This document shows, in pieces, positions 25,776 through 47,957 of a DNA stretch of 64,000 nucleotides (position 1 is its first letter; each line of letters starts with the position of its first letter). The stretch covers positions 1,376,001 to 1,440,000 of the forward strand of contig JAWLHY010000001.1 in the NCBI GenBank assembly GCA_041690135.1, read 5' to 3'. Position numbers and translations under genes: made by a program. The notes under the pieces were generated by a model. It worked only from the letters and a program-made list of their open reading frames with translations. It did no database searches and was not told the DNA's origin. Source of the DNA: Armatimonadota bacterium. Its GTDB lineage: Bacteria; Armatimonadota; SYMT01.

Positions 25776-25780
25776 CCGGG

Positions 25781-25844
25781 TCAGGTGTACAGGCAGTCAG
25801 GTGTACAGGCGGTCAGGTGTTCAGGCGGTCAGGTGTTCAGGCGT
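25781..25844. repeat. Tandem 8-mer array (T/A)CAGG(T/C)NN x8 (16-bp unit x4), 5 nt upstream of the mqnL start
   Basis: tcaggtgt acaggcag tcaggtgt acaggcgg tcaggtgt tcaggcgg tcaggtgt tcaggcgt. Confidence 0.85.
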
Positions 25845-25849
25845 TGGGC

Positions 25850-25869
25850 CCCCCCTGTGGGGGGTAAAC
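25850..25869 (+). mobile_element. Hairpin micro-element copy 1 (CCCCCCTGTGGGGGGTAAAC)
   Basis: Removal restores the heptamer run cgttggg-cgttggg-cattggg. Confidence 0.5.
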
Positions 25870-26253
25870 GTTGGGCATTGGGAATTCAAGCGGTCAAGTG
25901 GTCGGTTCATCAACCGAGTGAATGAGCTGGCTACCGTGGCCGCATGCTGGGTGCAATTCGTAGGGCGGGCGAGGGGAGCGGTGGAGTTGAGCATTGGGGC
26001 AGCCTGCCACGAAGGGTTCGAACACTGAAAGAAGCTCCCTTGCATGCCGGGTCATTGTATCACCGGGCCCTCGAGACGATACGCGCCATAGCGCAGTGGG
26101 CGGGGTTGGGCGGCATGGGGAATCCGAACTGGAATTCAAATCAAGAGAAGTTGATGAACCGTGCAGACCCACCGCCGTTCAGTGGGAGAGGAATCAACAT
26201 GGCGGTTGTCTGACCCTAAGGGCAGACGCAAGAAGGTCCGATAGGAGATCGAC

Positions 26254-30620: not shown

Positions 30621-30665
30621 CTAAACCCCCACCGTTGGAACCTCAACCGCCGCGTCTCTCGGAAG

Positions 30666-30733
30666 GCGACTGAAGTCGCAAGCTGAAAAGGCACTAAGTC
30701 GGCACCCCCTCGGGGCATAAACCTGCGCCGACT
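30666..30733. repeat. REP-like palindromes GCGACTGAAGTCGC and AGTCGGC..GCCGACT, the latter interrupted by micro-element copy 2 (30704-30722)
   Basis: Inverted repeats read directly; removing the 19 nt gives AGTCGGC-CTGC-GCCGACT. Confidence 0.65.
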
Positions 30734-31164: not shown

Positions 31165-31626
31165 TGTAAGGGGGGCGTTTCCGCACCCCTGTAGGTTCAG
31201 GCGGTGTTGGTCGGCCGACCAGTGCCACATCTGTTGGGCATTTGCCTTTGGGTTAGCTCGGTTCCGGAGTGTTGCCTCGGCTGGCGAGACCGGTACCGTG
31301 TCCATCACCAGGCCGGGACGGAGATCCGGCCCTACATGCCGCGCGACCCTGGCATGTGTGATGGCATGCTGGCGAGCACGCACCTGGGTTAGGGGACCTT
31401 GCCGTCTCGTTGTTCCCGGCACGATGTAGGGCAGGCTTTCCGATGCCTGCCCCGACATGGGCTTTTCCTCCGTAATGCCGGACGGTAACGACTGCAGGGT
31501 CGCGTGGCCAGAGGCGTGTGCCTCTGGAACAGAACCATTGGCGTTGGATCGGTTCCACGATGCTGTCCCGGCCGGCCAGACTGGCGGAGTGTCCATAGCC
31601 AGGCCGGGACAGAGATACGGCCCTAC
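31165..31626. repeat. REP doublets (REPIN-like) upstream of RAYT
   Basis: GTAG-GGCAGGC..GCCTGCC at 31426-31452; inverted GGCCGGGAC.GAGAT.CGGCCCTAC at 31311-31335 and 31602-31626 with homologous flanks; degenerate hairpin at about 31165-31190. Confidence 0.8.
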
Positions 31627-31782
31627 ATTTCACGGACCCTTGGACAACTGGGGGCACGTCGTTGGCTGCACGCACTTGCGCGGTAGACCTCCCGGTGAAG
31701 GTGCCGACTGCTGCCCTGACTAATCGTTATGCGGTATACAGCCTGGCCAGCATGCCAGGCCCCGAGTCCCGTGGATTCGCGA

Positions 31783-32370
31783 ATGCCACGCTATGACGAT
31801 TTCGATGAAGTCACCGACTTTCTGAACGCTCGGGACCTGCGCCGCAGCCGGAGGCGGAAGAACCATCACCTGGATGCTCCTGCCTACAGGCAGGTCGAGC
31901 CCTGCTACTGCCTCACGCTCTGTGCTCGCTCCCACGGCAAGCCGTTTCTGTTGAACTCGGTTGCCGCGGAGGTAGTCCAGGCCATCCGGCACCCTCGCGA
32001 CCGCGGCCAGTGTGCGGTCTATGCCTACTGCCTGATGCCGGACCATCTCCACATCATCCTTCGGCTGGTGCCCGCCGGGGCGACTTCTGCCGGAGAATTC
32101 GATTCTGTGGAAGATGAGCCTGCACAGGGCTTGAAGGCCATCGTGGCCAACTTCAAGCGCTACACCACCACGCAGGTGGCCTGGCGTCATGGTCTTACTG
32201 GCAGGCTGTGGCAAAGAGACTTCTACGACCACGTCGGCCGCAAATCCGATGACATCGAGGCGCAGTGCCGGTATGTCCTCAATAATCCCGTCCGCGCAGG
32301 CCTAACGGAGGATTGGCAAGATTATCCCTGGTGCGGAATTCTCGATGAGTGGCGTTGGGAGCAGAGTTGA
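31783..32370 (+). mobile_element. REP-associated tyrosine transposase (RAYT, Y1 HUH family)
   Basis: YCLMPDHLH (HUH), FKRYT, LWQRDFYDH, YVLNNPVRAGL...WQDYPW. Confidence 0.92.
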
Positions 32371-32469: not shown

Positions 32470-32669
32470 GTAGGGCAGGCTTTCCTATGCCTGCCCTGGA
32501 TTGGGCTTTGTCTTCGTACTGCCAGGCGGCACAAGCCTCAACGCGTGATGCCCAATGGCGGGTGCCCCTGGATCAGAACCCTAGCGTTGGAGCGGTTCCA
32601 GCGTGTTGGCCCGGCCGGCGAGACAGGTACCGTGCACATCACCAGGCCGGGACTGAGATCCGGCCCTAC
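32470..32669. repeat. REP doublet downstream of RAYT
   Basis: GTAGGGCAGGCTTTCCTATGCCTGCCC 32470-32496 and GGCCGGGACTGAGATCCGGCCCTAC 32645-32669. Confidence 0.85.
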
Positions 32670-32795
32670 ATTGCACGCGGCCCAGGCACGCGACCCCCTG
32701 GCACGCGCGTAGGCACGCCGCAGTACGCGCACATGAACGTGCAATGCCGAATGCCCGGCATTGATCCCTACTGTGGGGCCTCGACGCCAAATACC

Positions 32796-47576: not shown

Positions 47577-47724
47577 GGCATCTCACCGCAAAGGGCCGCA
47601 ATGGGCCGCAAAGAGAGGGAAAGGAGGGGGCTGGTGCTGAAACCGGTCCCCTCTCTGGCTCACCTGTCCGTTCGAGAGATGTCTCGCCTTCACGAAAGGC
47701 TTGGTATCGAGTTCTTCCTTTTCC

Positions 47725-47767
47725 CTTTGCGTCATTGCGCACCCCTGTGGGGCGTAAACCTTTGCGA
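47725..47767. repeat. Octamer C(T/A)TTGCGN run interrupted by micro-element copy 3 (47741-47759, ACCCCTGTGGGGCGTAAAC)
   Basis: Removal gives ctttgcgt-cattgcgc-ctttgcga. Confidence 0.6.
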
Positions 47768-47957
47768 GAGCTAATTTCCTTCCGTGTCTTTCCGCGTGTT
47801 CCGCGGGCAATCGCACGGGTAATCCGTCCCTCTCCTGCTTTGCGGATGCGCGTCTTTGCGCGAGACCCTCCTCTTCAGGTTCGGTGGATGGGAGTTTCCC
47901 GGCACAGGCATTCGGGAAAGTAGGGGTGCCAATCGACTGCGGACACGGAGGACCCAA

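Follow-up and report, generated by a model that had tools for sequence, protein, structure and literature searches.

A 19-nt hairpin inserted into unrelated repeats of a bacterial genome is likely a non-autonomous mobile micro-element

Three related hairpins of 19-20 nt lie in the window studied here (the whole 64,000-nt stretch of DNA, C1:1376001-1440000 of a 9.1-Mb assembly in 25 contigs), each within a different host repeat, and they raise the question of whether so small a unit moves and, if so, what moves it. All three are present where the initial annotation had placed them, and they belong to a family of 19-nt inserts that we call alpha, a name used here for each of the three. The copy at 30703..30721 (minus strand) comprises a TTTA head, a stem of six positions and a GAG loop in the minus-strand reading; it is placed one base from the loop of a REP-like host hairpin of family A (CTGC/GCAG loop, 30697..30733), which is part of a longer repeat unit beginning near 30665. 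The copy at 25849..25868 (minus strand) is a 20-nt form with seven C and an ACA loop on the minus strand. Its host, at 25780..25885 on the plus strand and upstream of the gene of a UbiD-family (menaquinone) decarboxylase, had been described as a heptamer run: an array it is, but one of mixed 8-nt and 7-nt units. The third copy, of 19 nt and also with an ACA loop on the minus strand (47740..47758, minus strand), sits in an octamer run of the CTTTGCG family downstream of metH (47724..47770, plus strand). The earlier remark that the copies share one strand holds for these three and is uninformative at the scale of the genome, where 62 forward and 82 reverse copies were counted.

The motif is well above chance. 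The pattern (A/C)CCCC-N3-4-GGGG-N1-2-TAAAC was found at 104 distinct loci and at none in either of two order-5 Markov genomes matched in length to the 9.1-Mb genome. When the tail of the hairpin was exchanged for 15 others, there were 37 matches for TAAAT, 33 for TCAAC and 17 for TAAAG, all three of them tail classes that are variants of the alpha family, and 0-4 for the others. A looser pattern (TAAA, CAAG or CAGG tails) identified 245 loci as compared to 20 in the control, and scoring with a weight matrix (score >16) gave 186 alpha copies, the reversed genome giving 4. In the minus-strand reading, alpha is laid out as a 4-nt head, a 6-position stem and a 3-nt loop. Among the 186 copies, the head is TTTA in 162 and CTTG in 15, the loop is GAG in 78, ACA in 56 and GCG in 22, and 110 are identical to one of eight variants. 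The full stem is formed only on the head-first (minus) strand, with pair 6:18 being G-T in 35 and A-C in 2 of 77 variants. Stem pairs co-vary across these variants (5:19, 63 vs 54.6 in shuffles; 6:18, 62 vs 40.7), at p-values that are overstated in as much as the 77 are related to one another. Triloops of the purine-N-purine type are stable in DNA, and their occurrence in alpha hence fits a folded DNA strand.

Precise borders are critical for interpreting the insertion. Those given earlier delimited real copies and are corrected by one base to the left. The last C/T of TAAAC/TAAAT tracks the phase of the host array, and the first alpha base pairs, and co-varies, with base 15. Upon deletion of 19 nt at 25 different registers, an exact empty 16-mer junction (8+8) was obtained for 90 of 173 loci at register (0,0), for 76 of 173 at (+1,+1) and for 23 or fewer at every other register; at 25849..25868, deletion of 20 nt yields 8+8-nt junctions present eight times in the genome. 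The suggestion that one base (C) is duplicated at the target did not survive this analysis: the first alpha base differs from the first host base in 50 of 173 copies, so there is no target duplication, and the apparent duplication of C is a one-base microhomology. The base before alpha is G (67%), A (24%), C (9%) or T (1%). The target motif is a loose N-N-A-S-R: position -3 is A in 93% of copies, and position -1 is a purine (G or A) in 91%. Sequence by itself does not account for the choice of target, since the REP-type target motif alone is found 3602 times in non-repeat intergenic DNA (as delimited by a crude gene model). Folding energies average -5.0 kcal/mol for empty targets and -4.5 kcal/mol for random intergenic DNA, only a slight advantage. 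Bias of alpha is absent both for the replication strand (46 vs 45, lagging strand; weak skew signal) and for the sense strand (47 vs 46; crude gene model).

The idea of a minimal mobile unit targeting repeats is supported by the coexistence of filled and empty states at 58 of 143 distinct junctions, together with a host REP that is only empty in relatives. An exact empty junction exists for 94 of 186 alpha copies, compared to 15 of 744 shifted controls, and the flank is repeated at 125 of the 186, as opposed to 15.5% of random intergenic positions. Alpha also comes out first when repeat DNA is scanned without bias for inserts that recur in filled and empty form. Considering the window copies, the 30703 site has an exact 42-nt empty paralogue at another place in the genome; for 47740, no exact empty junction was found at 7 or more flanking bases, and the empty state is seen in family form only (5 empty, 3 filled). 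The corresponding empty/filled counts are 20/10 for the host family of the 30703 site, 35/8, 10/9 and 14/11 for families B, C and D, 36/4 for the GTAG REP and 672/45 for the 7/8-nt arrays, in which matches overlap. In total, alpha resides in more than ten host families that include REP hairpins, 7/8-nt arrays, Rhs fragments and tRNA copies; its length and ends are fixed across them and its orientation is fixed within each. Five copies with a variant T..A stem lie in Rhs-repeat fragments (C11 1-9000; C12 277000-285427), at corresponding positions of the repeats or close to them. Two tRNA-Leu copies carry alpha beside an intact tRNA-Leu, with three neighbouring bases differing as well. At this locus (C3 888590-889500), the intact tRNA-Leu(GAG) is followed by two identical 454-nt units, each composed of a 96-aa GIY-YIG gene and an alpha-carrying tRNA copy. 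Rfam returned no match in the window, and among 18 host loci the tRNA alone passed the gathering score.

Expansion of alpha appears as a property of this one genome. Its pattern has 144 matches there, and none of the 400 others examined in the phylum has more than 3; at least one match is present in 54 of these 400, which is near the control level, and no expansion was found among them. Six genomes of the same family contain 0 alpha. Empty host repeats in relatives, as sought on the basis of the initial annotation, are found in three of these six, where the host REP is empty at 73, 15 and 6 sites; given that these three carry it empty only, the empty form is likely the ancestral state. Exact scans for alpha retrieved 21 GTDB, 60 metagenome and 2 viral loci, with one copy each. 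We take 8 of the 21 GTDB matches to be helix 16 of the 16S rRNA in Rhodothermales-type genomes. The 16S rRNA gene is absent from the assembly studied and from those of 5 relatives, and the likeness of alpha to helix 16 is probably coincidence. Among the listed pieces of public reads, drawn from two low-share runs on two stretches, none spans an alpha site, a finding that carries no weight either way.

Host sites of alpha also accommodate longer inserts (34-64 nt) that represent related hairpins with a CACCC/GGGYR base stem. The siblings comprise beta (77 copies, control 0), delta (16, control 0) and gamma (8, control 1), in addition to a G-type alpha with CAGG/CAAG tail (38 copies, control 0). 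Nesting extends to three levels, beta within alpha and delta within beta. Beta, a hairpin of 21-23 nt, replaces 2-7 host bases, its right end being constant and its left end variable, and loop bases are replaced with 1-2 nt microhomology. In one host family of 42 units, a 6-nt loop segment is present in 21 and beta-type inserts are found instead in 19; in three other genomes, beta replaces 5-6 nt. A dispersed repeat of ~65 nt (C1 825380 and about 40 other places; no Rfam match) has a 6-nt loop segment replaced by beta in roughly half of its copies. Beta is distributed more widely: it was found in 14 of the 400 phylum genomes (11 multi-copy; none in the family of the genome studied) and, in a second phylum (that of a Chloroflexi record), in 12 of 109 genomes (5 multi-copy, control 0). 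Controls for beta gave 1 match in 510 genomes, and the same 21-mer is kept across both phyla. In these other genomes beta again occurs in REP-like repeats and beside or in IS3-type, integrase and IS605 TnpB regions. Individual sites immediately follow a slippery run of IS3 type, fall within integrase-core frames or occupy hairpins that lie upstream of TnpB; one among the IS-associated sites listed is on a viral contig (L175). Some of the beta-bearing hairpins are presumably of IS605 type, and some beta sites are, we assume, IS110 and Rhs-core coding sequence. IS elements could carry beta between phyla. In one further genome (G183:C1 1207001 and 1211672), the gene of a 606-aa RT with a split RVT_1 match lies between two beta-filled repeats that point the same way.

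Based on the collective evidence, we consider alpha to be very probably mobile. It likely represents an SDR-like, non-autonomous mobile micro-element and appears to parasitise its own genome's REPs and mobile modules. In families C, D, E and H, the CTTG subfamily, two substitutions off, and the TTTA form share one insertion point; such sharing in at least four host families implies repeated independent insertions. In all three tandem doubles it is the TTTA copy that adjoins the intact 5' target. Host subtypes differing in paired stem changes and in the loop letter are each seen filled and empty. Part of the copy number was likely inherited along with the hosts, for variants segregate by host family: GNG loops are found in REP hosts, ANA loops in 7/8-nt arrays and GC..GC stems in the GGTTGAA array. 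Periodic alpha duplications are seen inside arrays.

Concerning the mover, we tentatively favour a hairpin-binding Y1 HUH enzyme of the IS200/RAYT family acting in trans as the single most likely one, with somewhat under half of the weight that we place on mobility being assigned to the Y1 class. It is ranked first on account of the head-plus-hairpin anatomy of alpha and of hosts that flank Y1 genes (families A, C, D and H in this genome). The folded minus strand would serve as the substrate, and its 5' end would become joined to the target 3'-OH just after N-N-A-S-R and its 3' end to the downstream flank. The target would be exposed single-stranded DNA, the candidate enzyme would be encoded elsewhere in the genome, and copying of the hosts would afterwards spread the filled copies. 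The constancy of the alpha ends in unrelated hosts suggests that these ends are recognised by the enzyme, presumably in a single-strand transfer for which polarity matters.

The RAYT located about 1 kb away (31729..32370, plus strand; NF047646, 94 bits at a cut-off of 80), proposed earlier as the mover, is not supported in that role by the data: it is flanked by its own empty GTAG-type REPs, on the left at 31600..31628 and on the right at 32643..32672 (both minus strand), the left one from a family that hosts alpha at other sites of the genome, and the alpha junctions do not fit. They are mostly G|T or A|T, unlike the C|T or C|A of characterised RAYTs, whose cutting at CT or CA is chosen by the tetranucleotide according to the pertinent section of PMC8266576. 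The RAYT guide rule predicts T|A for TTTA and C|A for CTTG, and the preceding bases observed disagree. IS200-like Y1 proteins are encoded at C11:209602, C2:54494 and C1:627750. Of 23 Y1-like loci (some of them weak matches), only 2 have an alpha copy no more than 600 nt away, in each case inserted in another REP, and no Y1 gene flanked by an alpha array was found in this genome, the assembly of which may be incomplete. Alpha having no second carrier genome, beta was the proxy in all profile tests of movers. The NF047646 RAYT class was rejected with 7 of 16 multi-copy and 2 of 9 single-copy beta carriers positive, compared to 32 of 54 non-carriers. PF01797 was present in 4 of 4 beta carriers examined and also in a non-carrier (G005), and no well-supported Y1 clade specific to beta carriers was found (rough support). 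Besides the junction dinucleotides being off the guide rule and the missing lagging- or sense-strand bias, there are further points that weigh against a Y1 enzyme: two different heads (TTTA, CTTG) use the same target, one hairpin cannot provide two ends of the IS200 type, array, Rhs and tRNA hosts are not REPs, and beta involves the loss of 2-7 host bases. No characterised Y1 enzyme is known to remove host bases at its target.

Three other explanations are live and not mutually exclusive. The first, unlikely though it is as a full account, is hitchhiking, in which a few seed insertions per host family are spread as filled copies by host mobility, slippage or gene conversion and alpha itself is rarely mobile. 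It accounts for variants sorting by host, for the periodic duplications internal to arrays and for 110 of 186 copies falling into eight variants. However, at least a dozen precise seeds would still be needed, and 58 junction types in both states, host subtypes likewise in both states, two head subfamilies at one point, tandem doubles and three-level nesting speak against it.

The second, ranked lower and hence also unlikely, dispenses with a dedicated mover: a structure-specific nuclease (small GIY-YIG or SbcCD-like) nicks hairpins, and repair switches template to a stalled hairpin that bears alpha. Consistent with this proposal, the targets belong to accessory DNA that is structured or repeated, namely REPs, IS3/IS605-type regions, Rhs and tRNA copies; the replacement of loop bases by beta with 1-2 nt microhomology and the two filled tRNA copies flanking small GIY-YIG genes fit as well. 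Template switching predicts variable ends, whereas the length and ends of alpha are fixed in unrelated hosts and the beta 21-mer is the same across two phyla; nor does the tRNA-linked GIY-YIG track carriers. As a candidate it was rejected: a single-protein query gave one weak match among 11 carriers and 3 matches among 36 non-carriers.

The third and least probable of the three is RNA- or RT-templated writing, akin to target-primed reverse transcription: an RT, primed by a nick in structured DNA, copies a short hairpin template, and the newly made strand is rejoined to the DNA a few nucleotides downstream. An RNA intermediate has reportedly been proposed for SDRs. The fixed orientation, the lack of duplication, the constant right and variable left end of beta and the loss of 2-7 nt would be explained. 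There are two RTs in the genome, of a type XIII retron and of the UG37 class. The former occurs in 11 of 14 beta carriers and 44 of 386 non-carriers of the phylum (55 of 400 overall). Its partner protein has an IS256-like, hence transposase-like, DEDE motif (as reported in a portion of PMC7736814), and a related RT exists in Nostoc punctiforme, where a retron RT groups with Mx162/Ne144 (PMC6868368, in part); both have been counted in favour of RT writing. Yet, once family is taken into account, the association with the retron becomes weaker (CMH p=0.05; with permutation by family and size, p=0.056), and it is not significant in genomes >4.5 Mb. It fails in the second phylum, where the RT is present in 0 of 12 beta carriers and the sole RT-positive genome of 109 is without beta; the type XIII retron was rejected as a candidate. 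Two beta carriers (G241 and G383) lack the type XIII retron system. The genome's own retron ncRNA is single-copy and without alpha, and its msd shares only an 8-nt palindrome with beta. UG37, another rejected candidate, is found in 1 of 151 genomes, namely the one studied, and the missing sense-strand bias also disfavours RT writing. An RT of any type is present in 10 of 11 carriers but also in 24 of 36 non-carriers.

Both RT systems are worth describing in their own right. The UG37 RT (C4 300016-302397, 794 aa), absent from 150 other genomes of the phylum, has an alpha-filled REP ~160 nt upstream. The type XIII retron ncRNA lies upstream of a WGR gene (C2 about 301300-301480 in this genome, and loci L201-L211). 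It involves a conserved scaffold around a stem of ~27-29 bp whose sequence is almost wholly variable while complementarity is kept; three genomes (G260, G085, G400) have two ncRNAs in tandem with different stems. The ncRNA has no Rfam match, and from its sequence it looks like a diversified or programmable module.

It is very improbable that alpha is a footprint, with the hairpin arising where the ends of an excised larger IS were joined. Inserts of 34-64 nt bounded by the two halves do exist, and a multi-copy IS may be missing from a 25-contig assembly, but the inserts are nested sibling hairpins and not genes, and half-elements outside full copies look, among the matches listed, like chance or decay. 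The excision scar considered in the initial annotation is not supported, with no long element between two halves among the matches listed and no IS110 or TnpB found in the assembly; searches for IscB and IS91 were blank, as were their positive controls. A chance motif or assembly artefact can practically be dismissed, even if no read or second strain independently confirms a filled site, given 104 loci compared to 0 and 0, 77 variants with decay and co-variation, and beta in 26 other assemblies.

A broader reading goes beyond the Y1 enzyme favoured above. It is possible, albeit somewhat unlikely, that alpha and beta constitute a cross-phylum class of selfish hairpins of 19-23 nt in structured, horizontally mobile DNA (REPs, IS ends and frameshift regions, Rhs cores, tRNA copies), written by an undescribed enzyme. 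As part of the same reading, that enzyme would be a short-patch DNA writer performing clean insertion, or the swap of a few target bases, unlike the reactions of RAYT, IS200 and retrons described so far. The way in which repeats of ~20 nt move has been a question ever since the description of SDRs, and that of REP dissemination is likewise unsettled (PMC8266576). Alpha likely spreads as one of the smallest mobile DNAs; both junctions are readable at dozens of filled/empty pairs, and the substrate is a single synthetic 19-mer. With beta, 26 carrier genomes from two phyla and non-carriers matched to them are available for profiling genes. New here are the cross-phylum range of beta and the profiling of four candidate movers (RAYT class, UG37, GIY-YIG, type XIII retron), none of which tracks beta. 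If a dedicated enzyme exists, it would paste or swap short oligonucleotides at hairpins without duplication. No description of the alpha or beta motifs was found among the papers listed in the literature search, and the full text of Elhai 2008, which lay outside the search, may bear on motifs and target loss.

Lastly, alpha can be placed among known systems. A MITE has terminal inverted repeats and a target duplication, whereas alpha has a 4-nt unpaired head and no duplication. Unlike an msDNA-derived (retron) repeat, alpha is absent from the own msd, and 0 of 12 second-phylum carriers have the RT. Transposition of IS200/IS605 makes no target duplication. Alpha resembles the non-autonomous derivatives of that family, as outlined in part of PMC8266576, in strand specificity, absence of duplication and a target kept 5', and it differs from them (two hairpin ends, fixed 4-5 nt target) in having one hairpin and only A at -3 conserved. 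Substrates of the REP and IS200/IS605 kinds carry a tetranucleotide on the 5' side of a short hairpin and transpose as single strands in a strand-specific manner (PMC8266576), and 5-bp stems are possible in group 3 REPs (sections of PMC8266576 and PMC3116915). Alpha is similar to REP/REPIN of RAYT groups 2 and 3 in its tetranucleotide 5' of the hairpin, its one functional strand and its ~190 copies, compared to hundreds of intergenic copies of REPs. In contrast to REPs, its head is TTTA/CTTG/CCTG and not GTAG (or CGTC), it occurs as single units and not as inverted doublets, it lacks a cognate RAYT flanked by it, its junctions are mostly not CT/CA and it sits inside REPs. REPs within small palindromes are exemplified by GTAG-23 of T. 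roseum and GTAG-15 of A. variabilis (a passage of PMC3733652). Like GTAG-23, alpha is a tagged short hairpin in another palindrome, with empty targets in the same genome; unlike GTAG-23 and GTAG-15, it has more than ten target families rather than one, and the tag in those is GTAG.

The likeness to SDRs is drawn from descriptions of these repeats. Elhai et al. 2008 (Genome Res 18:1484) reportedly described SDRs as units of 21-27 nt that form hairpins with compensatory changes; they are said to be embedded in heptamer arrays and minitransposons and to be self-nested, with the mover unknown. SDR5 is inserted precisely between bases 3 and 4 of HIP1 (PMC4390886, in part), and SDRs have been reported only in Nostocaceae, at least as stated in a passage of PMC5861425; those of Nostocaceae are also treated in a section of PMC3116915. 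Alpha differs from SDRs in its 19-nt length, in its phylum, in having a REP-like head plus hairpin and in invading REP loops, Rhs fragments and tRNA copies, and its sibling beta crosses phyla. Like them, it is a dispersed unit of ~20 nt (186 copies in more than ten unrelated host families), its hairpin exhibits compensatory changes (pairs 5:19 and 6:18 co-vary), it is inserted precisely in short tandem repeats or motifs for which empty sites exist, and it nests in itself and its siblings (3 tandem doubles). By this analogy alpha would represent a kind already known and appears to work like the SDRs of the Nostocaceae.
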